Under the pieces are notes generated by a model, which had not been told where the DNA came from, did not search any database, and saw only the letters and a program-made list of their open reading frames with translations. Source: Candidatus Parcubacteria bacterium (GTDB lineage Bacteria > Patescibacteriota > Minisyncoccia > Phycocordibacterales > CAIZLB01). Taken from it: a stretch of 64,000 nt of DNA. The stretch is from positions 25,347-89,346 of the forward strand of contig JAYUPL010000014.1 in assembly GCA_043760135.1 (NCBI GenBank), given 5' to 3'. This document shows positions 359-59,384 of this stretch, in pieces (position 1 is the stretch's first letter; every line of letters starts with the position of its first letter). The translations under genes and the position numbers were made by a program.

Positions 359-398
359 CATCATAGGTAGGGGGGGGAGGCTATTGACAAACCATATT

Positions 399-436
399 AA
401 AAGTGCTATCATTATCAGGTAGCACTTTTAATATTG
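399..436 (+). terminator. hairpin aaaagtgcta-N11-tagcactttt followed by an AT-rich tail
   Basis: Perfect 10-bp inverted repeat right after the tig stop. The T-run is weak. Confidence 0.4.
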
Positions 437-502
437 AATAAATAAAACGATAACGAAAGTGCTTTCCTCTACCGCAAACCAACCTAAAACACTGAAAATA
501 CC

Positions 503-1420
503 ATGAAAACGCTAGTTATGCTTGCTGTGCTCCTTGGAGCGTTCTTAAATGTCTCCGTCAGGGCTAAAGCCGCCGAAATGCAACTTTGGATGTCTGTGTC
601 GCCTCCCAACCCAATCGTTGGGAAAATCGTAACAGTGTCCATCACGTCTTCTGGGGGTGATAATCCCCACCAATACGTTTGGAACTCCTCCAATCCGACT
701 GAGACCCCTCAGCTCTACAACTGGACGGCACCCTACCCATATGCAACAACGAAGACCATGAGCTTTGTTTACACCACCACCGGAGGGAAGTCGATTACGG
801 TCGCCGCCGCCAGTGGCAACCAGCAGATAGTTAGAACTCTCTATTTCAACGTTGTTGGAGGTAAGATGAGTCCTAATGGCGGCGATATATGGGTCTCAGC
901 CTCACCTCCTAATCCAATTGTTGGAGAAACCGTGACGGTCTCCGTCACATCTTCGTCGGGAGGTACCAAATCCACTAAAACCGCAACGTTTATTTACAAC
1001 GCTGCTGGAACTAAGTTTGTCAACGTTACCTCTCCTAGCGGGATTAGCAGAACCCTTTCCTTCGACGTTGTTGAAGGCAGGATCACTCTAATCACCCCTA
1101 ACGGCGGTGAAGTTTGGGAGGTCGGTAAGACTTACCAAATTCAGTGGATCACAGAAGGCAACGTCCCTTTCGTCCAGATTGGACTCTGGGATGATCGTTA
1201 CAACAGCGAAGTTGGTAGTAATGGCGAAGAATTGATCGCTTTTTCAACCACCAACACAGGTTGGTTCAACTATGAGGTTCCACCAGCTCGTGCTGACGGA
1301 ATCTCCGCTGGAAATCTTGGTGGTCAGAACTACAAAGTCTCTGTTCAGGGCTTCAATCCCTGCTTCGGTGGACTCTCGGCCGGGAAGTTCACAATAAAAC
1401 TCCCAGTTCTTCAGTTCTGA
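503..1420 (+). CDS. secreted repeat protein with two Ig-like SPPNPIVG..TVTVS.TSS repeats and a Kre9/KNH-like motif (ITLITPNGGEVWEVGKTYQIQW); GC-rich outlier
   Basis: Signal peptide MKTLVMLAVLLGAFLNVSVRAKA and internal protein repeats. Local GC is near 50% against a ~30% background. Confidence 0.6.
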   Translation: MKTLVMLAVLLGAFLNVSVRAKAAEMQLWMSVSPPNPIVGKIVTVSITSSGGDNPHQYVWNSSNPTETPQLYNWTAPYPYATTKTMSFVYTTTGGKSITVAAASGNQQIVRTLYFNVVGGKMSPNGGDIWVSASPPNPIVGETVTVSVTSSSGGTKSTKTATFIYNAAGTKFVNVTSPSGISRTLSFDVVEGRITLITPNGGEVWEVGKTYQIQWITEGNVPFVQIGLWDDRYNSEVGSNGEELIAFSTTNTGWFNYEVPPARADGISAGNLGGQNYKVSVQGFNPCFGGLSAGKFTIKLPVLQF

Positions 1421-1465
1421 AACCTCAACTCAAGGTAGGGCGACTACCTATAAAACTAAATTGTC

Positions 1466-1500
1466 GCCATCAGCTGTCACCTCGTGTGATGGCTTTTTCT
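1466..1500 (+). terminator. rho-independent terminator gccatca-N14-tgatggc + TTTTT
   Basis: 7-bp GC-containing stem followed by a T-run, 45 nt after the stop at 1420. Confidence 0.55.
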
Positions 1501-1687
1501 TATTCACCCCTATCTATCCTCGCACAACCGTGTTATACTCAAATCACAAGGGTATACCCACAGACTTTGAGAGAATACAGAGCCTGATTTATAACCAACT
1601 GCAGTGACTTTCAGTGGAATAAATCATACAGATTACAAAGTAGTGTTAGTCAGATTAATTTAAAATAAAAATACAAGAATAAACAAA

Positions 1688-2101
1688 ATGGAAGCAGTAA
1701 ACAATAAAAAATTATACGTAGGAAACCTATCATGGGGAATCAGTGATGATTCATTAAGAGCTGCTTTTGCAGAATTTGGTGAAGTTACATCAGCACAAGT
1801 TGCTATGGATAGAATGACAGGTAGATCAAGAGGATTCGCATTCGTTGAATTCGCAACTGATGAAGCTGCTGCAGCCGCAGTTGCAGCATTGGATGGTCGT
1901 GAATTAGACGGAAGAGAATTGAGAGTAAACATCGCTATGCCAAAAACAGAAGGAGGCTCATCAGCACCAAGAAGATCTTTTGGTGGAGATAGAGGTGGAC
2001 AAGGTGGTGGATACTCAAGAGGTGGAGACAGAGGAGGTGATAGAGGTGGATATTCTTCACCAAGAGGTGGACAAGGTGGTGGATACTCAAGAGGATACTA
2101 A
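1688..2101 (+). CDS. RRM-domain RNA-binding protein with C-terminal RGG/Gly-rich tail
   Basis: RNP-2 motif LYVGNL and RNP-1 motif RGFAFVEF. Tail has repeated GGDRGG/RGG units. Confidence 0.85.
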   Translation: MEAVNNKKLYVGNLSWGISDDSLRAAFAEFGEVTSAQVAMDRMTGRSRGFAFVEFATDEAAAAAVAALDGRELDGRELRVNIAMPKTEGGSSAPRRSFGGDRGGQGGGYSRGGDRGGDRGGYSSPRGGQGGGYSRGY

Positions 2102-2280: not shown

Positions 2281-3504
2281 ATGTATATGAAATTTTCTTA
2301 CATCGCAAAGAAAGCAGACGACTCTACGTATGAAAGTATTTTTGTTACAGAATCAAAAACAGATTTATTTAATAAAATAAAACAAAGTGGTGATGTTCTT
2401 GTTTCTTATAAAATAATAACAGATGACAAGTTTCAGGTTGCTTGGAATAAATTTCTGTCTTCATTTTCAAAAGTAAAAATGATAGATAAGATAGTGTTTG
2501 CTCGTAACTTAGCAAACATGCTTGAGGCTGGACTTTCTTTGACACGTTCTATTTCTGTGATGGAAAAACAGAGTAAAAATAAAAAACTAAAAAATATTTA
2601 TCATGAAATTAATCTTGACATATCAGCGGGTAAAACTTTTCATGATGCGTTAAATAAATGGAATACAGTATTTCCTCCAGTTTTTATTTCTATGGTGAAG
2701 GCTGGTGAGGAGTCTGGAAATCTAGCTGATTCTTTAAAGTCTGTTGGTACCCAAATGGAAGCAACATATAAGCTTCAAAAGAAAATTAAAGGAGCTATGA
2801 TGTATCCGTCCGTTATATTTGTTGTGATGATTTTGATTGCAATTATTATGATGGTGTTTGTTGTACCAAAATTGACCGCTACGTTTGCTGATGTAAAAGC
2901 TGAACTTCCAGGTTCAACAAAATTTGTTATTTTTGTGAGTGAGTTTTTAAGAAATCATTTTATATTACTACCTGTTGGTTTATTAATATTGATGACTGTA
3001 ATTTATCAAGTCCTTCACACAAAAGAAGGTAAGAATATTTTTGATAAGGTTATTATAAAACTACCTATCTTTGGAACTCTTATAAAAGAATCTAACTCTG
3101 CAAAAACTGCAAGAACGCTTTCATCACTGATAGGATCTGGAGTAGATTTGATTCAGTCAGTTGATATTACTTCCGAAGTTTTACAAAATAATTTATACAA
3201 AAAAGTTATGTTTGAAGTAAGAGAAAATGTAGAAAAAGGTAAGCCGATGTCGGACATATTCAGTCAACATGAAAATCTGTACCCTGTGTTTGTTTCAGAG
3301 ATGATAAATGTAGGTGAGGAAACTGGTAAGTTGTCGAGTATGCTCCAGGGGGTTGCTGGTTTTTATGAAAATGAGGTTGATCAAAAAACGAAAGATTTGT
3401 CTACAATTATAGAGCCTATTCTTATGGTATTTATAGGTGTTGCTGTTGGATTCTTTGCTATCTCTATGATTACTCCGATGTATAGTGTAATGAATAATAT
3501 ATAA
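2281..3504 (+). CDS. pilC: type IV pilus assembly / type II secretion platform protein PilC/GspF
   Basis: Polytopic membrane protein with two GspF-like repeats and GEESGNL/GEETGKL motifs. Confidence 0.85.
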   Translation: MYMKFSYIAKKADDSTYESIFVTESKTDLFNKIKQSGDVLVSYKIITDDKFQVAWNKFLSSFSKVKMIDKIVFARNLANMLEAGLSLTRSISVMEKQSKNKKLKNIYHEINLDISAGKTFHDALNKWNTVFPPVFISMVKAGEESGNLADSLKSVGTQMEATYKLQKKIKGAMMYPSVIFVVMILIAIIMMVFVVPKLTATFADVKAELPGSTKFVIFVSEFLRNHFILLPVGLLILMTVIYQVLHTKEGKNIFDKVIIKLPIFGTLIKESNSAKTARTLSSLIGSGVDLIQSVDITSEVLQNNLYKKVMFEVRENVEKGKPMSDIFSQHENLYPVFVSEMINVGEETGKLSSMLQGVAGFYENEVDQKTKDLSTIIEPILMVFIGVAVGFFAISMITPMYSVMNNI

Positions 3505-3507
3505 TAT

Positions 3508-3951
3508 ATGAAAAAAAATCTCATCACATACTGCAAGCAAAAAGGTTTTACATTCATAGAGATGATAATTTCTCTCGGTCTGGTTGCTATGATATCAAGT
3601 CTTATTTTAGTCTCGTTCAATTCTTTGAACAATAAACAGTCACTTGATAAACAGATGGACTTTATAAAATCAGCAATAGGAAAAACGAGAACCAATGCTA
3701 TTAATTCACTTAACGGTGCAGATCAAGTGTTTACCTTTGCTTCAACTTCTATCACATATAATAGTCAAACGATAGATCTAGATCCAAGCATCTTATTGTC
3801 ATCATACACAACCGGCAGTAAAAATATTACATTTTCAAGATTAACAGGTTATCCAAGTGCTACAGGAACTCTGATTTACGTACTTCAAAAAGGAAGCACT
3901 GTTATTGCAACCAGTAGTATTACAATAAATAATTTAGGAATTATAGAATAA
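3508..3951 (+). CDS. prepilin-type N-terminal methylation-domain protein (pilin/pseudopilin)
   Basis: N-terminus KGFTFIEMIISLGLVAMISSLILV (G-F-T-x-x-E prepilin motif followed by a hydrophobic helix). Confidence 0.7.
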   Translation: MKKNLITYCKQKGFTFIEMIISLGLVAMISSLILVSFNSLNNKQSLDKQMDFIKSAIGKTRTNAINSLNGADQVFTFASTSITYNSQTIDLDPSILLSSYTTGSKNITFSRLTGYPSATGTLIYVLQKGSTVIATSSITINNLGIIE

Positions 3952-4487
3952 TGAAATTAATAAAATTACAACAAGTCGTACAACAAGCGCACTTCTGTTT
4001 TGATAAATCAAAACAAGTCGTACAAAAAGGAATATCTTTAGTTGAGGTTATTATAGCTTCATCGATAATTAGTGTATCGATGATTTATATTTCTAATGTA
4101 TATGGAAATTTTTTAACTCTGTCTTTGGAAAATACTGACAAAGTGCAAGCAGTGTTCTTGTTAGACGAAGGGGTTGAAGCTGCAAAGACGATGAGAAACT
4201 ATGCATGGTCTTCTATTGCATCTTCAACTTCAGCTACGGATTATTATTTGGTGTGGCAGAGTGCTCGGTGGCAATCAACAACAACACCTGTGATTATTGA
4301 TAATAAGTTTATTAGAAAATTTACAGTTTCAGATGTATTTCGTGATGCTTCAACTTTGAACATTGTGACTAGTGGTGGAGTTCTGAATACAGACAGTAAG
4401 CTTGTAACTTTCGACGTATCTTGGAATTACAAAGGTGCAACATCAAGCAAGCAAATAAGTTTTTATATATTTAATCTATATGAATAA
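3951..4487 (+). CDS. prepilin-like minor pilin
   Basis: KGISLVEVIIASSIISVSMIYI N-terminal prepilin-like helix. Overlaps its neighbours by a few nt (operon). Confidence 0.55.
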   Translation: MKLIKLQQVVQQAHFCFDKSKQVVQKGISLVEVIIASSIISVSMIYISNVYGNFLTLSLENTDKVQAVFLLDEGVEAAKTMRNYAWSSIASSTSATDYYLVWQSARWQSTTTPVIIDNKFIRKFTVSDVFRDASTLNIVTSGGVLNTDSKLVTFDVSWNYKGATSSKQISFYIFNLYE

Positions 4488-5010
4488 AATAATTAACAAA
4501 AAAAAGAATAGCGGTTTTTCAATAATTGAAATAATTATTTATTTTTCAATACTCGCAATTATTTCTACTTTAGTAATTGGTAATATAATTTCACTTTTCA
4601 AAAACTATAATGTAGTAAGGGCTAATCAGGATATAGAATATAATGCCATTTCAATACTTGATAAGCTGACTCGAGATACTCGAGATGCTGCATTCATAAA
4701 TACATCAGACTCCTTATTTTCTGTGTCACAGGGTGCAATCTCTTTAAACATTGCAAGTTCGACTAATAGTACCGCTTCTAACACAGCTAAATTTTATCTA
4801 AACAATAATAAGATAAAATATAAAAAAGATGGTGTTGATTTTGGTAATCTTTCTACAAATGCAGTTACAGTTTCCAATTTTAAAATATATTATATAAATT
4901 CTTCCACCACTGAAGCTATAAAAGTAGAGCTGAATCTTGAAGTGACCCCTCACCTACATTCAGCAGTGATTTCTAAAAACTTTTACACTACTATACAACT
5001 TCGTGAATAA
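4480..5010 (+). CDS. prepilin-like minor pilin
   Basis: NSGFSIIEIIIYFSILAIISTLVIG prepilin-like N-terminus. Confidence 0.55.
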   Translation: MNKIINKKKNSGFSIIEIIIYFSILAIISTLVIGNIISLFKNYNVVRANQDIEYNAISILDKLTRDTRDAAFINTSDSLFSVSQGAISLNIASSTNSTASNTAKFYLNNNKIKYKKDGVDFGNLSTNAVTVSNFKIYYINSSTTEAIKVELNLEVTPHLHSAVISKNFYTTIQLRE

Positions 5011-5025
5011 TTAAGATATAATAAC

Positions 5026-6819
5026 TTGTATATGAGAAATAAGGGTACAAAAGAAAAAGGAGCAGCTATGATCATAGTTGTTTTATTTTTTATAATATTA
5101 TCGGCAACATTATTGATTGGAGTATCTACGCCTATATCAAATCAGATCAAGGGTACCAATGAATTTCTGATTTCCAAATCAAGCTACACTATTGCTGACA
5201 GTCAGGTGGAAAATTCACTTTATAGATTTAATAAGGGTAAAAATGACGCCCCAAGTGAATTATCATTATTGGATTCAACAGCTAACGCTGTCCTGACTGA
5301 GACGAGTGATGGAAGAAGTCTTGTGGTTCAAGGCAGTAAATCATTTTTTGATAGATATGTGAAAGCAATATTTCAGAAAGGTGAAGGTTATTCCTTTAAT
5401 TATGGAATCCAAGTGGGAAATGGTGGATTACAGATGACAGGTTCATCCTATGTGACAGGAAATGTATATTCGAATGGGGATATTTCAGGTTCTACTGGCG
5501 GTGGTGGTCCATACAAAAACTACATCACAGGAACTGCCATTGCTGCAACATTATCAAATCCAAATGTAAGTTTTAGTATATCAAGCTCAACGGCAGCTTA
5601 TCAGGCATATTCGATAGGTCAAACAGATACGAATCAGGATGTTTCTCAGTCTTTTGTTACAGCGACTACGACAGGTATTACTCAAATAACTTTTTTAATT
5701 AAAAAAACTGGAATACCTGCAAATGCTACTGTGAAGATCGTAAATAACAACTCAGGTGTACCCGGGTCTACTCTGATAACCTCAGGTACTTTAAATGCTT
5801 CATTGGTAACAACCTCTTTTGCTTATATTTCTGCATATATGTCTACTACTGTACCTTTGAGTGCTAATGCGACATATTGGATTGTTATTGATAATGGGTC
5901 AAATGATGCTTCAAATTACTACTCTGTGGCTGCATATGATGGGGTGTATTCGACCGGTACTACAAAACAAGGTAAATATGGTACATCTATGGTAAATCTT
6001 TCAACTACAACCCTAGATTTTGATCTTGGTATATTTGTAGGTGGTGATCCTGGAGTTATATTGAATGTAGGAGTTGGTACTTCGGGAACTGGTGATGCCT
6101 GGGCAAACACTGTGACAGGTAGTACTGTGGTGGGAACAGGTAGTTTGTTTTGTCAGATTGGTTCAGGTAACAATAAAGTCTGTGATACTTCAAAAATTGA
6201 CCCTGTAGCTGTTGCATATCCAATATCACAAGGAAATATTAATGATTGGAAAGATCAGGCTACGGCTGGAGGAGCAACAACAACCAATCTTTCAGTGCCC
6301 AGCTCGGGTACATCATCGCTCGGACCTATAAAAATTAATGGTAATTTGACAATAAGTAGTGCGGACTTGATTTTAACGGGACCTATTTATGTAACGGGAA
6401 ATGTTACGATTGATGGTGGTTCCGTAATATCTGCAGATCCTACATTGGCAGCTTTCAGTGCCTTGATTATTGCAGACGGGGTTATCAGTGTTACGGGTTC
6501 TGGAGGAATTAGCGGTTCTGGCACATATGGAAGTTATGTTATGCTAATTTCAGATAAGTCTTGTACTACAACGGCAAATTGTATTGCAAACCCGTCTATA
6601 ACTGTTGCAGGGTCGTCAGGTACTGTTGTTTTATATGCTATAAATGGTGGTGTTACACTATCTGGTTCTTCCAATGTAAAATCTATTGTTGCAAAACTTG
6701 TATACCTACAAGGTGGTGCTAATATAACTTATGAAACAGGTCTTGCTAACATGAGCTTTACCTCAGGCCCATCGGGGTCCTGGAACAGGAAATCTTGGAA
6801 AGAGGTATTGGGGTGGTGA
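5026..6819 (+). CDS. giant pilin-like protein (PilX-like hydrophobic N-terminus followed by a long Ser/Thr/Gly-rich beta-rich domain); putative pilus tip/adhesin
   Basis: N-terminus KGAAMIIVVLFFIILSATLLIGVSTPI. About 560 aa of low-complexity T/S/G-rich repeats. Last gene of the pilC-pilin operon. Confidence 0.5.
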   Translation: MYMRNKGTKEKGAAMIIVVLFFIILSATLLIGVSTPISNQIKGTNEFLISKSSYTIADSQVENSLYRFNKGKNDAPSELSLLDSTANAVLTETSDGRSLVVQGSKSFFDRYVKAIFQKGEGYSFNYGIQVGNGGLQMTGSSYVTGNVYSNGDISGSTGGGGPYKNYITGTAIAATLSNPNVSFSISSSTAAYQAYSIGQTDTNQDVSQSFVTATTTGITQITFLIKKTGIPANATVKIVNNNSGVPGSTLITSGTLNASLVTTSFAYISAYMSTTVPLSANATYWIVIDNGSNDASNYYSVAAYDGVYSTGTTKQGKYGTSMVNLSTTTLDFDLGIFVGGDPGVILNVGVGTSGTGDAWANTVTGSTVVGTGSLFCQIGSGNNKVCDTSKIDPVAVAYPISQGNINDWKDQATAGGATTTNLSVPSSGTSSLGPIKINGNLTISSADLILTGPIYVTGNVTIDGGSVISADPTLAAFSALIIADGVISVTGSGGISGSGTYGSYVMLISDKSCTTTANCIANPSITVAGSSGTVVLYAINGGVTLSGSSNVKSIVAKLVYLQGGANITYETGLANMSFTSGPSGSWNRKSWKEVLGW

Positions 6820-6841
6820 TAGAGTGTGATATAATATTTTA

Positions 6842-7651
6842 ATGATATCTAAAAAAACGATTGTAATTGCAAATCTCAAGGCATCCAATAGTGTATATAA
6901 AGAAGTTGAAAAAAAGATTACTCTTTTATGTAAAGTTTTAAGTAAAGATAAATCCAAAGTAGATTTGATTGTTGCTCCTGTATTTTTACATCTCTCTCGT
7001 CTTAAGACTTTTTTTAAAAAATCTGTATCTCTATCTGCTCAGGATGTATCTTTATTTGAAAATGGATCACATACAGGGGAAGTAACTGCAGGTTCCATAA
7101 AAGATGCTGGTATTGAGTATGTGATAATCGGTCACAGTGAAAAAAGAGAACAAGGTGATACTCAAGACATGGTGGTACAAAAAGTTCAAAATGCTATAAA
7201 AAATGATTTAAAGGTTGTCCTATGTATTGGTGAAAAAGATAGAGACGAAGGTGTAAAATATTTAAAGGTTATAGAAAATCAAATCACTTCAGTTTTTCAT
7301 ACTGTAGATAAAAAGAATCATGAAAATATTATCATAGCCTATGAACCTGTCTGGGCTATTAACAATAAAAATAATTTATCTATTGATGCTCATAGTTTGC
7401 ACTCTATGGTAATTTACATCAGAAAAATTTTACTTGAAAAATATGGTGAGGCAGTTTCTAAAAATATAAATATACTTTACGGTGGATCTCTTACTCCGGA
7501 GAATGCACAAGATATATTGTGGAATGGAGAAGTTCAAGGTTTACTTATTGGGCGTGCTTCATGGGAGGTTGATAGTCTCGTTAAAATTATAAAAAATATA
7601 ATCGTTAATCCGAAAAAAAGTCTACTAAAAGTTTATGGAAATAAAAAATAA
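6842..7651 (+). CDS. tpiA: triosephosphate isomerase
   Basis: Catalytic motifs IIGHSEKRE (His), AYEPVWAI (Glu) and YGGS. The usual GTG loop after AYEPVWAI is replaced by NNKNN. Confidence 0.85.
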   Translation: MISKKTIVIANLKASNSVYKEVEKKITLLCKVLSKDKSKVDLIVAPVFLHLSRLKTFFKKSVSLSAQDVSLFENGSHTGEVTAGSIKDAGIEYVIIGHSEKREQGDTQDMVVQKVQNAIKNDLKVVLCIGEKDRDEGVKYLKVIENQITSVFHTVDKKNHENIIIAYEPVWAINNKNNLSIDAHSLHSMVIYIRKILLEKYGEAVSKNINILYGGSLTPENAQDILWNGEVQGLLIGRASWEVDSLVKIIKNIIVNPKKSLLKVYGNKK

Positions 7652-8783
7652 AAAAGTATTACTACGTGCTGATTTCAATGTGCCTATAAAAGATAGTATT
7701 ATCAAGGATAATTACAGGATTGTATCAACTATTCCGACTTTAGAATTATTAAGAAATGCAGGAGCTAAAACAATTATTATTTCGCATATAGAAACTAAGG
7801 ATGCAGAAAAACCAACACTGAAACCTGTTTTTGATTATTTAAAAAATAATTATTCAGATTTAAATATTGAATTTATTGATAATGTTGAAATGCTAGAAGA
7901 TGCTTTAAATAATCTGGTTGATGGTGGATTTTTACTTTTAGAAAATATTAGAAATTTTGATGGAGAAAAAAATAATAGTACAGAACTTGCTGAAAATTTT
8001 AAAACATTAACAGAGGTGTACATCAATGATGCATTTGCAGTTTCGCATAGAGATCACATGTCTGTATCTGCGCTTCCTGCGTTGTACGATAAAGATCATA
8101 AAATGTTTGGATTACAGATGCAAAAAGAAATTAATAATTTATCAAAAATATTAATTCCAGAAAAACCTTCTGCTGTGATTTTGTCTGGTGCAAAATTTTC
8201 CACTAAGCTACCGTTGATTGAAAAATATTTACAAACTGCTGACAAGCTTTTGATTGGTGGTGCATTGTTTAACAACGTTTTAAGATCACTCGGACACAAT
8301 ATCGGAAAATCTTTGATAGATACTGAGGCTGATTTAACAACATTGGTTACAAGTGAGAATTTTATTAAAAAAGTTTATATACCGAAAACTGTTATTGTTA
8401 AAAATATAGATACAAATGAAGTTAGAAAATCTAGTGTACAGGATGTAAAAGAGAATGAGAGTATAATGGATGTGGACAGTATACAAAATTTTGTACAAAT
8501 CTTAAAAGATGAAAATTATAAAACCATAGTATGGAATGGGCCTCTTGGATATTATGAGGATGATCTGTTCAAAACAGGAACTTTGGAGTTGGCTAAAGGT
8601 TTAGTTGAATACGTGACTGTTCATGAAAACGCGCATCTATTTATAGGAGGAGGAGATACTGTGGGTGCAATACAAAGCATGCACATAGATAGTCAAAGGA
8701 TATTTATCTCAACCGGAGGTGGGGCAATGCTCGAGTTTTTGGAGAGGGATGGAAAATTACCTGGAGTTGTGAATGTTCAGTAG
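7635..8783 (+). CDS. pgk: phosphoglycerate kinase
   Basis: LRADFNVP, LLENIRNF and SHRDHMS motifs and a GGGDT-containing C-domain. 17-nt overlap with tpiA. Confidence 0.9.
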   Translation: MEIKNKKVLLRADFNVPIKDSIIKDNYRIVSTIPTLELLRNAGAKTIIISHIETKDAEKPTLKPVFDYLKNNYSDLNIEFIDNVEMLEDALNNLVDGGFLLLENIRNFDGEKNNSTELAENFKTLTEVYINDAFAVSHRDHMSVSALPALYDKDHKMFGLQMQKEINNLSKILIPEKPSAVILSGAKFSTKLPLIEKYLQTADKLLIGGALFNNVLRSLGHNIGKSLIDTEADLTTLVTSENFIKKVYIPKTVIVKNIDTNEVRKSSVQDVKENESIMDVDSIQNFVQILKDENYKTIVWNGPLGYYEDDLFKTGTLELAKGLVEYVTVHENAHLFIGGGDTVGAIQSMHIDSQRIFISTGGGAMLEFLERDGKLPGVVNVQ

Positions 8784-8840: not shown

Positions 8841-9272
8841 ATGAAAACCACACATTTGATTATTTTGTTCTTCGCGTTTTTTCTCTCTGCTTCGGCGCAG
8901 ACTGGTCCGAGTTATGGACTTCCGAAACTCAAAGAGGTTCAAGGTGCTCGGACGAGTGTTGACGGTCGTTGGATTAACTATGACGGTAGTCTGTACCATA
9001 TAATGGACACTTCCTTCAATAAGGATTCGGATGAACCAATTCTTTTTGTAAATAGTGATCCATACATTGTTGGGGCTCGGATCACTCTCAATGATGAGTT
9101 CGTGTACTACGGTCGAAACAATTACCAAAAGTTTCGGACCGCTTGGAAACCGATGGTGATACGTGGAGGTGAGATAAAACGTCCAACTGGAGCAGTCTTA
9201 GGATTTGCAGTTTTTATTGCTATTTTTATAACCTGCTTCGCAAGATCTACTGCCAAAAGGACAGCATGGTAG
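8841..9272 (+). CDS. hypothetical secreted protein with C-terminal TM anchor
   Basis: Signal peptide MKTTHLIILFFAFFLSASAQ, C-terminal hydrophobic segment, GC above background. Confidence 0.4.
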   Translation: MKTTHLIILFFAFFLSASAQTGPSYGLPKLKEVQGARTSVDGRWINYDGSLYHIMDTSFNKDSDEPILFVNSDPYIVGARITLNDEFVYYGRNNYQKFRTAWKPMVIRGGEIKRPTGAVLGFAVFIAIFITCFARSTAKRTAW

Positions 9273-9379
9273 GTGAATCTGTTTTTGTTTTCAAATCAAC
9301 CCTCGGGACTCTAAAAGTTCCAGGGTTTTCTTTTTATTTGATAAATTGCTGTTGGTGAGGTATACATAAAGTATCCGAA

Positions 9380-9601
9380 ATGGTTTCGGATCTTGAACCT
9401 TCGACCTATATGAGAACCATAAGCACCGTTTTCCTCGTTTTACTTACTGTCAAATTATTTTTCTCCTTCAGTGGTGTGCCGTTGTTTATTGTTATGATCG
9501 TTTCTGTATTTGCTGTTCCTTTCTTTATTATGGAGATACTCTACATCTCTCAAGATAGGGACAGTGACCTCGGATATATCAATCGATCTTCTAACTGGTA
9601 A
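9380..9601 (+). CDS. hypothetical small membrane protein
   Basis: Two predicted TM helices. No recognisable family. Confidence 0.3.
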   Translation: MVSDLEPSTYMRTISTVFLVLLTVKLFFSFSGVPLFIVMIVSVFAVPFFIMEILYISQDRDSDLGYINRSSNW

Positions 9602-9624
9602 CCTTGTGCAAACCCAAATCAAAA

Positions 9625-9657
9625 ATCCCCGGACTTTTACAGGACTGGGGATTCTCT
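9625..9657 (-). terminator. rho-independent terminator (minus-strand reading: ccccagtcctgtaaaagtccgggga + TTTTT)
   Basis: GC-rich stem followed by a T-run on the minus strand. It closes the structured region downstream of the DoxX-like gene. Confidence 0.55.
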
Positions 9658-9723
9658 TTATTAACGACGTAGAGTGAGAGAAACAAAAGTGATGACACTT
9701 TTGTTTCCGAACCGAGGAGTTAA
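9658..9723 (-). repeat. conserved structured element, copy 2 (inverted orientation): same flanks as copy 1, central hairpin gaaacaaaagtg/tcat/cacttttgtttc
   Basis: Reverse complement matches 2177..2240 in both flanks (about 20 + 24 nt identical). The hairpin sequence differs but is fully compensatory. Confidence 0.55.
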
Positions 9724-9819
9724 CGGTAAATACCTCGGAGCTTTGCTCCGGCACATGGACAAGCAAAGCTTGTTCGATGTGATACCTCGATGCTCTGCAT
9801 CGGGGAGGTATTCATTTAA

Positions 9820-10684: not shown

Positions 10685-10707
10685 AAAACTATGATATCAT
10701 ATATCCC

Positions 10708-12486
10708 ATGTTTGAGACTATCGACCAAAGTTTTATAAAAAAAATCCTTAAAGATAGGGGTTTTAATAAGGGTGAGACAGAAGAATTTCTTAACCCTTTA
10801 TATATTGAAGAAAATGGCGGTATGTATGATGGCCGAAAAATGAAAGATATGGATAAGGCTATGCAGAGAATATGGACCGCAATAGATGCTGATGAAAAGA
10901 TTGCAATCTACTCTGACTACGATGCTGATGGGGTTCCAGGTGCTGTGGTTCTGTATTCATTTTTCAAGAAAATCAAATATCAAAATAATGTGGTTGTGAA
11001 AATTCCTCATCGTCATAAAGATGGGTTTGGTCTACATAAACATTTGATAGATGAATTGAAAGTTGATGGTGTAAAATTAATTATCACAATCGATCTAGGC
11101 AGTTCGAATGTTGAACAGGTTGACCATGCTAACTCTCTAGGTATCGATGTTATTATCACAGACCACCACGAGCCTCATGAAAAATTACCTCATGCTGTTG
11201 CAATTTTAAATCCAAAACAAGAAGGTTGTAAATATCCTGATAAGAATCTTTGTGGTTCTGGGGTGATTTTTAAGTTGGTTCATTTAATGATTATTGAAGC
11301 AAGAAAAAGAAAATATGATATTGCAGTTGGGTATGAAAAATGGCTATTGGACATGGTAGGTCTTGCTACCATATCGGACATGGTTCCTTTGACGGGAGAG
11401 AATAGAGTTTTTGCTCAGTATGGTTTGAAGGTTCTACAGAAGAATAAAAGAAAAGGAATCTATCATCTTTTAAGTAAGTTAAAAATAAATGAGAGATACC
11501 TCGACGAATCTGATATTGGATTCTCAGTTTCACCGTGCATCAATGCCGCATCTCGTATGAGTCACGCTATCGATGCTTTTAATTTATTGTCATCTGATGA
11601 TGAGGATACTTGTATCAAATCAGCCGATGCATTAATAAAGCTTAACAAGCTTAGGAAATCTTCTGCTGATAGTTTGATCGGAGATATCAAAAATAAAATC
11701 GATGTGAGTCAAGTTCGTGACATTATTGTGATTGGAGACGAAAATTGGTCACCCACTATCTTGGGTCCTGCCGCATCAAACTTGGTACGACAGTTTCAAC
11801 TCCCTGTTTTCATTTATGCATCCGCAGGAGAAGATGTGTTTCGTGGATCATGCAGGTCAATACCAGGAATATCAGTTGTTGACATCATGGGTCATGTTTC
11901 AGAAGATTTTTTTATAGAATCAGGCGGACATCACGCATCTGGTGGTTTTGCATTTGCCACAGAAAAGAGAGATTTATTTGAAGCCGAGATGAGGGAAGCT
12001 TTTAGAAAATATAAAGAGATACGTGACAGTGCAAAGGTGAACGAAGAGATTGTGGCTGATGAGATATCATACAAGATTACTCATAACAACGTTGATAATT
12101 TTTTAATTAAGCATCTTGCCCAGATGAAACCTTTCGGGATGAAAAATCAAAGTCCGTTATTTTGTATCAAACAGGTGTCTTTTCGTACTATAAAATATTT
12201 TGGTAAACAGAAAGAACACATCGAATTTGTTGTTGAACAGTTCTTAAATGATAAACAACAGATGGAAACAGTCACACCTGAGTTGTTTCAGGACACATAC
12301 AAGTATTCTTCAAACTATAGTAAGAAAGATGTTGTAAAATACATAAGCTTCTTTGCTGATAATTTATTGCAGGATATCAAAGCAAACATCGAGTACGACA
12401 TATATGGTCGTGTTGAGGAGAGTAATTTTTTGGGTAAAAAAGAGATTCGTGTTAAAGTTGAATACATACATGTTTCAGAAAAATAA
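10708..12486 (+). CDS. recJ: single-stranded-DNA-specific exonuclease RecJ
   Basis: DHH phosphoesterase motifs (DYDADGV, ITDHHEP) and a DHHA1-like C-terminal region. Confidence 0.85.
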   Translation: MFETIDQSFIKKILKDRGFNKGETEEFLNPLYIEENGGMYDGRKMKDMDKAMQRIWTAIDADEKIAIYSDYDADGVPGAVVLYSFFKKIKYQNNVVVKIPHRHKDGFGLHKHLIDELKVDGVKLIITIDLGSSNVEQVDHANSLGIDVIITDHHEPHEKLPHAVAILNPKQEGCKYPDKNLCGSGVIFKLVHLMIIEARKRKYDIAVGYEKWLLDMVGLATISDMVPLTGENRVFAQYGLKVLQKNKRKGIYHLLSKLKINERYLDESDIGFSVSPCINAASRMSHAIDAFNLLSSDDEDTCIKSADALIKLNKLRKSSADSLIGDIKNKIDVSQVRDIIVIGDENWSPTILGPAASNLVRQFQLPVFIYASAGEDVFRGSCRSIPGISVVDIMGHVSEDFFIESGGHHASGGFAFATEKRDLFEAEMREAFRKYKEIRDSAKVNEEIVADEISYKITHNNVDNFLIKHLAQMKPFGMKNQSPLFCIKQVSFRTIKYFGKQKEHIEFVVEQFLNDKQQMETVTPELFQDTYKYSSNYSKKDVVKYISFFADNLLQDIKANIEYDIYGRVEESNFLGKKEIRVKVEYIHVSEK

Positions 12487-18555: not shown

Positions 18556-18640
18556 TTTGAGGTCACAATTTGTGACCTCAAATTTGGTACAAGAAAATTC
18601 CCCAAGGACCGAGATGGTCCGAGGGGAATGTTTTTTGTTT
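18556..18640. terminator. two hairpins (aaatttgaggtcacaa/ttgtgacctcaaattt and ccccaaggacc/ggtccgagggg + T6) between convergent genes
   Basis: Perfect 16-bp palindrome plus a GC stem followed by TTTTTTG. Confidence 0.6.
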
Positions 18641-19547
18641 ATTCTACAGGCCACTCGCCATCGAAGTTTGGAAGCACTACTTTATCGATATAATCTTTAA
18701 AGAGGCTACTTTCAGGATTAATGCCTAAGAGTAGTTCATTGTAGAGATGACTAAAGAATCCTTTGTGTCCGAAAAATTCTCTAGCCGCTGTCCTGGTGTA
18801 CTTATAGTGACTCAACGCACCTACCCAGGAATTTAAAGTACTGAGTATGTGGAAACACTTAAAGTCTTCGGCATTTTCCCAATGACAATCTTCCGTGACG
18901 ATGCTCAGATGGGTATAGTCTAATCTCCCAGGCCGAATGATTCTTTGTCCAAAATGTGTCCATCGGCACAAGTTTTCATTAGTGATGTGGGCGGCGAATA
19001 ATGGACTCCATGCCTCGTGGTCTTCATCAGACAGAAAATCTGTAAGTCTTCCTGCATAATCATTGGGTGATGCAAGACCACACTTAATAAAAATCCAGAT
19101 TAACATCTTACGTAGGAATTCTTGTTCATCTCTGTATAAATCCAGACTAAAGCCGTACATTTCAGATGAATAACCGGAGGCATTTGGTACTTGAGACCAG
19201 ATAAGATCTATATCATTCCCTAACTTTTTGTATGAAGGTACATCTGATTTGCCGTATTTTTTATAAATAATGTTTTGTTTCCGACGCAATTCTTCAACGC
19301 GTTTGGTTCGGTTTGGAACCAAAACAGTAATATAGTGAATCAGCGATTCCAAAAGGGTAACATACAGATCATAATCACTGTTTTCTTTACGTTTTGCGTC
19401 GATATCACTGTTTCTGTTTTTATTCAGTACAATCCAAGGATAAAGTTGGCTAAAATCTCTCCAATCATTGCTCAGTTTTTGGATGAGCGCGTTGAGCAAG
19501 GGAAGGAATGCGGGGAATGCCACGAAGTTTTCTGGAAACATTTTCAT
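18639..19547 (-). CDS. hypothetical protein (302 aa), GC-elevated
   Basis: Long ORF with GC near 42% and no recognisable motif. Confidence 0.4.
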   Translation of the reverse strand: MKMFPENFVAFPAFLPLLNALIQKLSNDWRDFSQLYPWIVLNKNRNSDIDAKRKENSDYDLYVTLLESLIHYITVLVPNRTKRVEELRRKQNIIYKKYGKSDVPSYKKLGNDIDLIWSQVPNASGYSSEMYGFSLDLYRDEQEFLRKMLIWIFIKCGLASPNDYAGRLTDFLSDEDHEAWSPLFAAHITNENLCRWTHFGQRIIRPGRLDYTHLSIVTEDCHWENAEDFKCFHILSTLNSWVGALSHYKYTRTAAREFFGHKGFFSHLYNELLLGINPESSLFKDYIDKVVLPNFDGEWPVE

Positions 19548-29098: not shown

Positions 29099-29560
29099 TC
29101 ATTTCCTGATGACCGCTACGTTCCAGTAGTCGGGATACCAACCTTCATGCAGGTGTCTTTTTTGATAGTTGATTGCTGATCCGCGACGGCTGTATTCAAT
29201 TGAAACGACCCATTTATCAGTACTGAAATAATTCTCAAACATGCTACCGAAGAAGAAGAGAGCGTGACCATCCATGCATACAGGGGGAAGATGTTTGAGA
29301 CTTTCGTCAGCGGGATTTTTTGAAATATAATCAGACATGCAATGATTTAAGGGGATGTATTCTACCTGTTGTTGTAACAAGTTAAACATATCCCCAATAG
29401 TCATGTCCTTTGTTCCAATTTTGATTACTTCGATATGGCGAGGGTCAACCATTCCACAATTTTGAAAGTTTGTAATCGGTTCTTTGTATTTAAACCATTT
29501 ATGTTTCTGAATTTCTTCATATTCAGCTGAGGAACTGCAGTCTACTAATGTGTCAGTCAT
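29099..29560 (-). CDS. hypothetical protein
   Basis: 153-aa ORF, GC elevated. Confidence 0.4.
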   Translation of the reverse strand: MTDTLVDCSSSAEYEEIQKHKWFKYKEPITNFQNCGMVDPRHIEVIKIGTKDMTIGDMFNLLQQQVEYIPLNHCMSDYISKNPADESLKHLPPVCMDGHALFFFGSMFENYFSTDKWVVSIEYSRRGSAINYQKRHLHEGWYPDYWNVAVIRK

Positions 29561-33246: not shown

Positions 33247-33843
33247 ATGGCCACAAAAGATATTGTCTGGATGTCTATTATCCTCCTTGTTATCATTATT
33301 ACTTCGGTTATTTCCTGGAAGGAAAAGAATAATGCTCGAAATTTTGTTTTGAACTCTAAAACCGCCCTGGAGGATTTACTTAACCAGGCAGAAGACTTAC
33401 TTGATAAAAATCCTGAAGTTGCACCTCCATTTTTCGATGATTTTCATGAGATGTGGTGCGATCTTATAAATTTATTCCAAGGTGTCGATGAGAACACCTT
33501 TGATATTTGTTGGGTCACGAAGCAGAAAGAGGTGTTGATATTTAAACACTCGATAACTGCCAAGGTCGTCGAAATCAAAGAAGACATTCAGATAGTAATC
33601 GACGCAAAGTTCCATGTGCCTTTGTTGTTAGAGCTACTGCCTCCATTGCTTTCAGAAGTTCGTAAAAAGATTTCTGAAGGAAAACTTTCCGAGGACAAAG
33701 CGAAGCCTTATCTTGATCGAGCACACGGTTGGTTTTCTGAAGCGTGTGCAGTGATGCGTCAAAGTCAGGATCATTCATTGATATGGGGTATGCTCAGAAG
33801 CGCAAACGAAGAACTTGGTTTGGCTGATTCTTTCGAGGTGTAA
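33247..33843 (+). CDS. hypothetical protein with N-terminal TM
   Basis: 198-aa ORF. Confidence 0.4.
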   Translation: MATKDIVWMSIILLVIIITSVISWKEKNNARNFVLNSKTALEDLLNQAEDLLDKNPEVAPPFFDDFHEMWCDLINLFQGVDENTFDICWVTKQKEVLIFKHSITAKVVEIKEDIQIVIDAKFHVPLLLELLPPLLSEVRKKISEGKLSEDKAKPYLDRAHGWFSEACAVMRQSQDHSLIWGMLRSANEELGLADSFEV

Positions 33844-43436: not shown

Positions 43437-43973
43437 CTATTTTCCGATCAACTCATCAACAGCTACTTGGATTTTTTTGGTGATATAGATTGAAACGTTA
43501 GGATCACCATCGTTAGCATGTCCAGGACCTGGTAGGTTGAGGAATTTTTCGTAGCGCAGGTATCTTCCTTGATATGCCACCTCTCCACCGCACCGGTTGA
43601 TAATAGGTTGTCCGTATTCCGGATCATACACATCAGAAAATCCGAAGGCGGTCAGCAAATCTTCCAAAGAAAGCCAGATGGTTCCACTGCTGAAGGATTG
43701 GGTAGAATGATTGATTTTATAAGTTAAAAGCCAACCATCAGGTTCTCGGGCAAGTCCGGTGAGATCCTTTGTGATGGCGATTTCCACCGCACTTGAACCA
43801 AGGAGTAGTGTTTTCCGTACTGAGTTGGCGTCGTTGAACCCAATCCAATCGATTTTTGAGCCGTGGTGATGGAACCAGTCGGGAATACCCAACCCTCTTT
43901 GGAAGATCGGTTTAATTATTGGTGTTGTTTGTTTCATCAGTGTATCTTGTTGAAGTTTCTGTCTTTTGTACAA
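43437..43973 (-). CDS. hypothetical protein, GC-rich outlier
   Basis: 178 aa with GC near 45-47%. Directly upstream of the divergent deaminase on the same strand. Confidence 0.4.
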   Translation of the reverse strand: MYKRQKLQQDTLMKQTTPIIKPIFQRGLGIPDWFHHHGSKIDWIGFNDANSVRKTLLLGSSAVEIAITKDLTGLAREPDGWLLTYKINHSTQSFSSGTIWLSLEDLLTAFGFSDVYDPEYGQPIINRCGGEVAYQGRYLRYEKFLNLPGPGHANDGDPNVSIYITKKIQVAVDELIGK

Positions 43974-58850: not shown

Positions 58851-59384
58851 GTGAGCACTACAAAAAATACAATATTTGATATTTCAAGCCCAGACGTTGC
58901 TGTGCAAAAGACCGTTTTTGATCAGCTTGTTGGATTGGACTTTTTACAGGCTAATCCTATTCGTACTAAGGATCATGTATATACGATGAATAGTTTTTTA
59001 CACTACGGCCAAGGTCATCATTCTGTATTGAATGCCGCCAGTCAAGTTTTAAGTTCAACCAATCCGATTCATATAAGCTGTGGATTGTTTGCAGATTTCT
59101 TTGTGGAAATGGAAAATTCCGAACTTAAACACAAGCCCAATTCAGCGGCCGAGGCTGTTCGGGCTTTGAAAAGAGAAGTTCTAAGTTTGATCAGAATTGT
59201 TCATATCCATATCAAATCGGATTGCATTCACAATCTGACAAGAAGGATGGCATTGAATATATGGCATCAGAGCATCGATTATCGTAATCCAAATGAAAGG
59301 TGGTTGACGTTCGAGACTTTGGACATTGATTTGATCTCTAAGCAAATACTGCAGTACATACGGGAATCAGAAGTACCTGCCTAA
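58851..59384 (+). CDS. hypothetical protein (GC-elevated)
   Basis: 177-aa ORF followed by a strong terminator. Confidence 0.4.
   Translation: MSTTKNTIFDISSPDVAVQKTVFDQLVGLDFLQANPIRTKDHVYTMNSFLHYGQGHHSVLNAASQVLSSTNPIHISCGLFADFFVEMENSELKHKPNSAAEAVRALKREVLSLIRIVHIHIKSDCIHNLTRRMALNIWHQSIDYRNPNERWLTFETLDIDLISKQILQYIRESEVPA

Follow-up and report, generated by a model that had tools for sequence, protein, structure and literature searches.

Recombination-hotspot islets and integron cassettes are the described systems closest to the locus reported here, which lies at the start of a 64-kb stretch of DNA (64,000 nucleotides, in the following the window) from a Candidatus Parcubacteria bacterium (assembly GCA_043760135.1, contig JAYUPL010000014.1, positions 25,347 to 89,346 of the forward strand). 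Here a gene at 503-1420, in the following the cargo gene, sits between tig, the gene for trigger factor, and the gene for a glycine/arginine-rich RNA-binding protein with an RRM domain. Hotspot islets and the tig-RRM locus have in common a fixed site between core genes, alternative cargos or an empty site, sharp boundaries and foreign composition, and the cargo gene seems best likened to a small islet of this kind with a bacterial immunoglobulin-like (Ig-like) surface or secreted protein. The locus differs from such islets in being a single-gene slot of 0.3-1.3 kb, with no integrase, tRNA or insertion sequence (IS) at the site, and in supplying or sharing a module of promoter and hairpin ahead of the cargo. 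Its cargo is also GC-richer than the host, while acquired DNA is usually AT-richer than its host. Integron cassettes resemble it as single-gene units swapped at a fixed position downstream of a shared 5' sequence, with possible tandem occupancy (two open reading frames, ORFs, in L018 and a second module-like sequence in L011), but each cargo of the slot has its own terminator and a promoter immediately upstream. Since an ORF and Pfam survey of 8 kb upstream and 60 kb downstream gave no integron integrase, and no attC-like site is repeated or common to different cargos, the cargo gene is not an integron cassette. That mobile cassettes with one and the same 5' module are dispersed through the genome was also considered and is rejected for the window, where both the module and the 3' element are unique.

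The nearest described proteins are the Kre9/KNH proteins of PF10342 (at NCBI 'Ser-Thr-rich GPI-anchored membrane family protein'), to which the cargo protein would be related through its C-terminal ~115 aa, homologous at profile level, through an Ig-like beta-sandwich and through an extracytoplasmic location. It differs from them in scoring below the family threshold and in the single domain copy, which in the cargo family is fused to one or two family-specific N-domains. The bacterial PF10342 relatives are giant multi-repeat surface proteins, in contrast to the cargo family, whose members are short (221-317 aa) and have no anchor. The characterised PF10342 members are fungal (beta-1,6-glucan synthesis) and their function is therefore not transferable; a literature search for PF10342 proteins of bacteria turned up studies of fungi only. 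Likeness to the PKD and Big Ig-like adhesin modules is at the level of fold class only, with no Pfam PKD match and a low-confidence model of the first N-domain.

Our conclusion, to which we assign a probability of about 55%, is that the window allele is the current cargo of a hypervariable slot, horizontally derived and long diverged, and that such alleles have reached the slot, by delivery or exchange, on more than one occasion. The gene family would have arisen in and circulate among Paceibacteria, with native composition in lineages of ~50% GC, and AT-rich lineages would receive it horizontally and retain its donor-like C-ending codon usage. The tig-locus alleles are old and mutually saturated, in a slot that turns over faster than species diverge, and exchange would probably take place by homologous recombination through the conserved flanks, the 3' end of tig and the RRM leader. 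The window allele would thus be one of several long-diverged alleles and no recent one-off arrival, and its product a secreted protein in which two family-specific N-domains are followed by one domain of the Kre9/KNH type, all three of them Ig-like beta-sandwiches.

Composition of the cargo gene and occupancy of the slot

An earlier note on this DNA had described the gene as a sharply bounded outlier of ~50% GC in a ~30% GC genome, which holds for the gene and its boundaries, the figure for the genome being slightly low (34.6% in the window). The cargo gene has a GC content of 0.497 against 0.346 across the 64-kb window, and its GC content at third codon positions (GC3) is 0.523, the window maximum (z=4.1), against a mean of 0.28 (standard deviation 0.066) for the 72 further ORFs with 100 aa or more. 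The step is abrupt, from ~0.34-0.44 before position 500 to 0.48-0.53 over the gene and 0.31-0.34 by ~1600. Codon usage, which the note had named together with GC as a check, also proved foreign: the synonymous-codon log-likelihood under host usage lies at z=-6.1 from the native mean, the lowest of 66 genes. Most of the excess is carried by C-ending codons, with a third-position spectrum of C3 0.34 and G3 0.18 (native mean of C3 0.107±0.041). The DNA of the cargo gene is identical (0 mismatches) in assemblies of two other sequencing runs (L001, L002), and because the three independent assemblies agree this is not an assembly artefact, and chimeric contigs are unlikely.

This composition could be attributed to a native gene which became GC-rich through a Gly/Pro/Thr/Ser/Ala/Val-rich protein and an expression-linked preference for NNC codons. 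Back-translation of the protein with host codons does lift the expected GC to 0.405, but it gives a GC3 of only 0.264±0.023 (maximum 0.342 in 2000 simulations), which means that amino-acid content accounts for ~40% of the GC excess and for none of the GC3 excess. At two-fold pyrimidine-ending codons NNC reaches 0.40-0.60 in the native genes for S7, EF-G, the RRM protein, NusG and L11, not far from 0.64 in the cargo gene. This preference of highly expressed genes explains two-fold codons only: overall their C3 is 0.10-0.15, and the cargo gene uses C-ending codons in four-fold families as well, where native genes avoid them. The C3 comparison, the GC3 simulation and the absence of the gene from five close relatives effectively refute a native origin, which we regard as extremely improbable, and the composition is foreign beyond what amino-acid content or the expression-linked codon bias of the host can give.

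Reference genomes were scanned with tig as anchor, the five further relatives obtained being metagenome-assembled genomes annotated as Paceibacteria, Parcubacteria or 'Nomurabacteria', and the locus is a hypervariable accessory-gene slot between core genes in a genus-level group of AT-rich Paceibacteria (Patescibacteria, also candidate phyla radiation, CPR). The trigger factor, of which L001 holds the full-length gene, is 83-94% identical in the relatives and the RRM protein 89-96%, and the sequence rightward of CCCCTATCTAT is common to all eight species, with 84-95% DNA identity, whether the slot is occupied or empty. Orthologs of the cargo gene occupy the slot in L003/L004 (P0003, GC 0.477 and GC3 0.474, host GC 0.31), in L036 (P0004, GC3 0.57) and in the more distant L013 (P0005, GC3 0.34, tig 72% identical), and P0002 of L011, whose 3' untranslated region (UTR) is held in common with the window and L003, is probably also at this locus. 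After the terminator of P0002 the L011 contig ends (1120-1152) in TTGACAAATGTATATAT, which resembles the start of the 5' module of the slot and may belong to a second cassette in tandem.

The cargo gene is missing from five of five further species-level relatives with tig 83-91% identical, an absence at the orthologous locus that the earlier note had proposed to look for. The tig-RRM spacer of L020 is an empty site of 175 bp, that of L021 consists of AT-rich filler (335 bp) and that of L017 holds an unrelated AT-rich ORF of 103 aa, while L018 (1714-2115) and L019 (7152-7553) carry an unrelated 133-aa orphan with an N-terminal transmembrane (TM) helix and a GC of 0.44-0.46. Three members of this orphan are known and its donor was not found. 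It sits behind the same TTGACA-plus-hairpin module as the cargo gene, and in L018 an additional 86-aa multi-TM ORF lies between tig and the module. The TTGACA element is kept at every occupied slot, where the module of TTGACA, hairpin and T-run comes directly after tig; it is confined to the tig locus, and homologs at other loci have their own near-consensus promoter and terminator. In a tree of tig and PilC, L003, with the gene present, is sister to L017, with another cargo (98.5% bootstrap), and the window genome groups with L018/L019 (64.5% bootstrap). Sister species differ in cargo, and the slot therefore turns over faster than species diverge. The earlier note had set its proposal against GC-rich orthologs at the same locus with the codon usage of highly expressed native genes; the orthologs are there, in at least three lineages (L003, L036, L013), and the codon usage is unlike that of highly expressed natives.

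The family is rare, with 9 matches among 5.8e9 proteins and ~12 full-length clusters at 50% identity among 1.84e9 representatives, and it seems confined to Paceibacteria. Its homologs in contigs of ~50% GC match the GC of their hosts (P0007 in L005-L010, GC 0.47-0.50, and in L031/32; L034/L035, 0.49). The taxonomy of the P0007 host was taken from ClpB, which on the P0007 contigs (L005-L010) is 80-84% identical to proteins of Paceibacterota, Parcubacteria and Taylorbacteria; cluster look-ups were uninformative in this respect. Native genes of a ~50% GC host have a C3 of 0.26-0.44, above their G3, which is the same third-position spectrum as that of the window gene. In AT-rich hosts the homologs are always GC-richer than their flanks, at several different loci. 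The homolog of L033 lies in a ~3-kb GC-rich islet (5000-8130) beside a Dcm methyltransferase and a probable restriction gene (on its opposite strand the islet also contains a GC-rich ORF of 557 aa), that of L037 has a GC3 of 0.73 against short AT-rich flanks, and in L012 an IS3-type transposase is found 600 bp upstream, the only homolog locus with a transposase nearby. Because its composition is native in ~50% GC hosts and that of a GC-rich outlier at several AT-rich loci, these data support the entry of the gene into AT-rich lineages horizontally, from within Paceibacteria. According to a survey, most horizontal gene transfer into Patescibacteria stems from other Patescibacteria (PMC12455944).

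Age of the alleles and retained GC content

Between the window and L003 the flanking orthologs are 57-94% identical in amino acids, with synonymous sites near saturation. Synonymous divergence (dS) by Nei-Gojobori was saturated or undefined and was replaced by a residual, the codon identity at conserved residues above chance expectation. This residual is 0.224 pooled over 17 flanking genes, and for the cargo gene it is 0.09 between window and L003 (95% bootstrap -0.04 to 0.21) and ~0 for all other allele pairs, including the window and P0002, which share a domain duplication. The closest allele of the window gene is P0003 (71% identical), with P0002 at 62-68%, and among 5.8e9 proteins no near-identical copy was found, the best non-self match being 63-71% identical. 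The alleles, at synonymous saturation, must go back at least to the species split, so the acquisition of the cargo gene is not recent. The earlier note had read the locus as a recent horizontal acquisition: foreign codons, the pattern of presence and absence and the ~50% GC homologs speak for its horizontal nature, and synonymous saturation and the same-locus orthologs against its being recent. A recent one-off transfer to the window lineage from a GC-richer donor would fit the strong, unameliorated contrast with its sharp boundaries, as well as the absence of the gene from the nearest sampled relatives L018, L019 and L021. Both of the closest alleles are nevertheless saturated, the protein database yields no donor copy close to identity, and other lineages have the same slot with the locus-specific 5' module, all of which makes such a transfer very unlikely.

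A single insertion followed by neutral decay towards the host GC3 of ~0.2 needs an ancestral GC3 of 0.79-0.86 when estimated from the flanks, and above 1 with the gene's own residual; because at least 0.8 is needed, persistent GC-richness is not explained by simple neutral amelioration. In an Akashi-type test G/C-ending codons were not enriched at conserved residues (odds ratio, OR, 0.88-1.08), GC3 is uniform over the signal peptide and all three domains, and site-specific codon conservation is absent (residual about 0). Translational selection for GC-richness is rejected by the Akashi-type test and by the comparison with highly expressed genes. The retained GC could stem from repeated delivery or exchange, from selection on bulk composition, or from GC-biased conversion limited to the cargo. 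We favour the first, with long-diverged alleles coming into the slot repeatedly from GC-richer Paceibacteria, because slot turnover is observed directly and the codon spectrum is donor-like.

One ancient insertion in the genus ancestor, with vertical descent, losses or replacements and a GC content actively maintained by selection or GC-biased conversion, would account for much of the above. Such maintenance might work, e.g., through mRNA stability, through the translation kinetics of a secreted beta-rich protein, or through conversion at a recombination hotspot. Four or five lineages, the distant L013 among them, have the locus, the 5' module and in part the 3' UTR in common, the alleles at tig fall into a single clade, and the divergence of alleles is commensurate with or above that of the flanks. 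Maintained GC would also agree with a gene GC of 0.43-0.59 in every host, whatever the host GC (0.29-0.50), with the implausible ancestral GC3 demanded by the neutral model and with the second, unrelated cargo, the 133-aa orphan, being GC-rich too. On the other hand, neither the Akashi-type OR nor the uniform GC3 nor the codon residual gives a sign of maintenance. The 3' end of tig and the RRM gene have a GC3 of 0.17-0.28, which would demand that biased conversion end precisely at the boundaries of the cargo; in L017 the slot holds an AT-rich cargo, and the L013 allele is partly ameliorated (GC3 0.34). A single insertion also requires at least four independent losses or replacements. Simple as vertical descent with losses is, it predicts amelioration, which is not seen, and we consider the ancient insertion doubtful.

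A bolder form, which we find unlikely, takes the donor-like GC composition as actively maintained beyond saturation, and the slot as a dedicated, promoter-equipped and integrase-free cassette-exchange site in CPR bacteria. GC-biased conversion in a recombination-hot cassette or selection on the composition of the mRNA of a secreted protein could then keep the cargo GC-rich, perhaps other cargos of the slot too.

Several points weigh against repeated delivery of long-diverged alleles to the slot, the conclusion that we prefer. In the protein tree the alleles of the tig locus make up a monophyletic group, and a conserved 3' UTR is common to three of them; a single ancestral insertion, inherited vertically and lost in places, is the simpler account of this pattern. 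The search for a donor, which the earlier note had suggested, led to no specific source of the tig-locus clade: a GC-rich donor with a tig-locus-type allele was not found, and neither was a phage, plasmid or viral contig with a family member, so that a vector of this kind was set aside. No integrase, transposase or tRNA is present at the window locus (window and L001 flanks), and both recombination through the flanks and the identity of the donor lineage are things that we infer. With respect to the product, the structure model is of moderate confidence (mean pLDDT 63.5) and the domain type is the sole guide to function.

If upheld by population data, the lack of amelioration bears on the use of GC deviation as a dating tool for transfers, and also on biased conversion or composition-level selection in CPR genomes. 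The tig-RRM locus itself is a clean example of gene swapping between very small genomes without obvious mobile-element machinery.

The encoded protein

The cargo product is probably secreted through the Sec pathway, judging from its N-terminus, MKTLVMLAVLLGAFLNVSVRA|KAAE, which on inspection shows Lys as its second residue, a core of 15 hydrophobic residues and a VRA|K motif; a hydrophobic N-terminus is present in all members of the family (alignment A1). The rest of the protein is predicted to consist of three domains. The first, N1, is predicted to be all-beta (model pLDDT about 50-60), and the second, N2, occurs in the window protein and P0002 only, where the alignment shows it as an insertion that the six other members lack. 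The earlier note had pointed to two SPPNPIVG..TVTVS repeats, and the duplication is real: SPPNPIVG..TVTVS..TSSGG is found at aa 33-52 and again at aa 134-154, and N1 and N2 match in BLASTP with E=5e-10 and 32% identity, N2 having a deletion of ~26-29 aa. Neither PKD profile (PF00801, PF18911) matched the N-domains in Pfam; a relationship with PKD is a lead only and a PKD-like motif is not established.

The Kre9/KNH-like motif noticed earlier is found, in the C-terminal part, at the level of profiles, and the window protein itself stays below the Pfam threshold: it does not reach the PF10342 gathering score of 24.6, and at E<=1 its sole Pfam match is RHS_repeat (E=0.15), dismissed as not significant. 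In the family P0018 passes this cutoff with 26.0 bits, and P0020 (24.4) and P0034 (23.2) fall just under it. The family hidden Markov model (HMM, from A1) matched 5259 proteins among 1.84e9 representatives; giant proteins contain its positions ~117-193, in the C-terminal part, in as many as 55 repeats, and sampled matches bear 4-10 stretches of PF10342 with E down to 5e-78. The first protein search had also returned a PF10342 protein, P0009. These profile comparisons point clearly to homology between the C-terminal ~115 aa and the PF10342 repeats. In a search of PDB sequences with the family profile only Ig-like matches were returned, all with E>0.02, and the structure model likewise predicts an Ig-like beta-sandwich fold.

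As to the surface or adhesion protein that the earlier note had suggested, secreted tandem Ig-like domains are indicated by inspection and by the domain assignments, and adhesion is suggested by the type of domain only. A role in adhesion or glycan binding outside the cell appears most likely. Attachment to other cells is the presumed way of life of Paceibacteria and of CPR bacteria in general, and variable secreted Ig-like proteins are candidate determinants of attachment to a host or partner. Apart from its retained GC, the cargo is a fairly ordinary accessory gene.

Flanking elements and neighbouring genes

The cargo gene is a self-contained monocistronic unit with a promoter-like element, an A/C-rich leader, the ORF and its own terminator (Table 1). 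The element TTGACA-TATCAT is likely its promoter, to judge by the match to consensus, and occurs once in the window. A/C-rich leaders are found in L011, L013, L018 and L019 as well. Hairpins had earlier been noticed on both sides of the gene, and they are present, as a 15-bp inverted repeat at 394-434 and a canonical terminator at 1472-1494. No such repeat is expected by chance in the window (0 expected). The repeat is conserved: a change A>G/T>C in L003 is compensatory, L017-L019 keep the pairing through G-U wobbles, and only the empty site of L020 was seen to lack it; a full T-run is lacking in the window and follows next in the relatives.

Table 1. Features of the tig-RRM slot and of the cargo gene, with further ORFs of raised GC3 in the window
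Feature	Position	Strand	Basis or remark
tig (trigger factor) 3' end, C-terminal 116 aa	8..358	+	Pfam Trigger_C E=6e-16; left flank of slot
Putative sigma-70-type promoter, TTGACA, 17 nt, TATCAT, TG upstream	384..412	+	scan, 11/12 match
Perfect 15-bp inverted repeat ATATTAAAAGTGCTA/TAGCACTTTTAATAT	394-408/420-434	+	overlaps promoter; terminator-type hairpin after tig
A/C-rich 5' leader	435..502	+	no obvious Shine-Dalgarno; read directly
Cargo ORF	503..1420	+	305 aa, ATG start
Probable signal peptide, aa 1-24	503..574	+	probable cleavage after VRA; by inspection
N1 domain, aa 25-120	575..862	+	family-specific beta-sandwich (predicted); alignment A1
N2 domain, aa 121-190	863..1072	+	shortened N1 duplicate; model pLDDT 70-83
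Kre9/KNH-type Ig-like domain (predicted), aa 191-305, and stop codon	1073..1420	+	family profile; pLDDT 70-89
3'-UTR element CTCAAGGTAGGGCGACTACCTA..AAAACTAAATTGTCGCC, small hairpins	1429..1468	+	~40 nt; unique within window
Intrinsic terminator of cargo, 9-bp stem then TTTTTCTTATT	1472..1504	+	terminator scan; stem-loop 1472-1494
Slot right boundary: RRM-gene promoter and ~150-nt leader, begins CCCCTATCTAT	1507..1687	+	sequence comparison
RRM-domain glycine/arginine-rich RNA-binding protein gene	1688..2101	+	Pfam RRM_1 E=1e-23; right flank
Five GC3-raised ORFs	18639-19547(-), 29099-29560(-), 33247-33843(+), 43437-43973(-), 58851-59384(+)		GC3 0.38-0.43, no Pfam match

The 3'-UTR element, with two small alternative hairpins, is ~90% conserved in the window, L003 (~10700-10745) and L011 (~1045-1090), despite saturated synonymous sites in the coding sequences of the same three alleles, and it is degenerate in L036. 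The fold of minimum free energy (MFE) of the cargo 3' UTR, terminator included, has z=-3.1. In Rfam the E-value mode gave only sub-threshold noise over 340-1720 (PYLIS_5, SpF10, miRNAs) and the gathering threshold only five tRNAs over the whole window; a preQ1-like reading of the element found no Rfam support and was dropped. An 8-bp repeat, AGGTAGGG, is found at 364-371, close to the left edge of the insert, and again at 1433-1440, which could be due to chance.

On the right side, the ~180-nt promoter and leader of the RRM gene (1507-1687 and its counterparts in L003, L017-L021 and L036) is conserved though synonymous sites are near saturation. RNAalifold gives it a long-range fold with one covarying pair, the alignment being too conserved for a test of structure, and Rfam has no match; it is a candidate for an autoregulatory or otherwise structured leader. 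The gene order is tig, cargo, RRM protein, PilC, three pseudopilins, a 597-aa protein, TIM and PGK. The slot thus lies within a type IV pilus or competence-like neighbourhood, with PilB upstream (L001 2919-4676) and PilC, the pseudopilins and the 597-aa protein downstream (window 2281-6819), which is compatible with DNA uptake as a route of cassette exchange.

Elsewhere in the window, five ORFs without a Pfam match have a GC3 of 0.38-0.43, against the mean of 0.28, and may be further acquired genes of raised GC. Between PGK and DoxX (8841-9766) there are two orphan ORFs, one of 143 aa (+, signal peptide) and one of 103 aa (-), with a GC of 0.41-0.43 and no Pfam match. L003 has only 328 bp at this place, which suggests another small and variable islet of raised GC.

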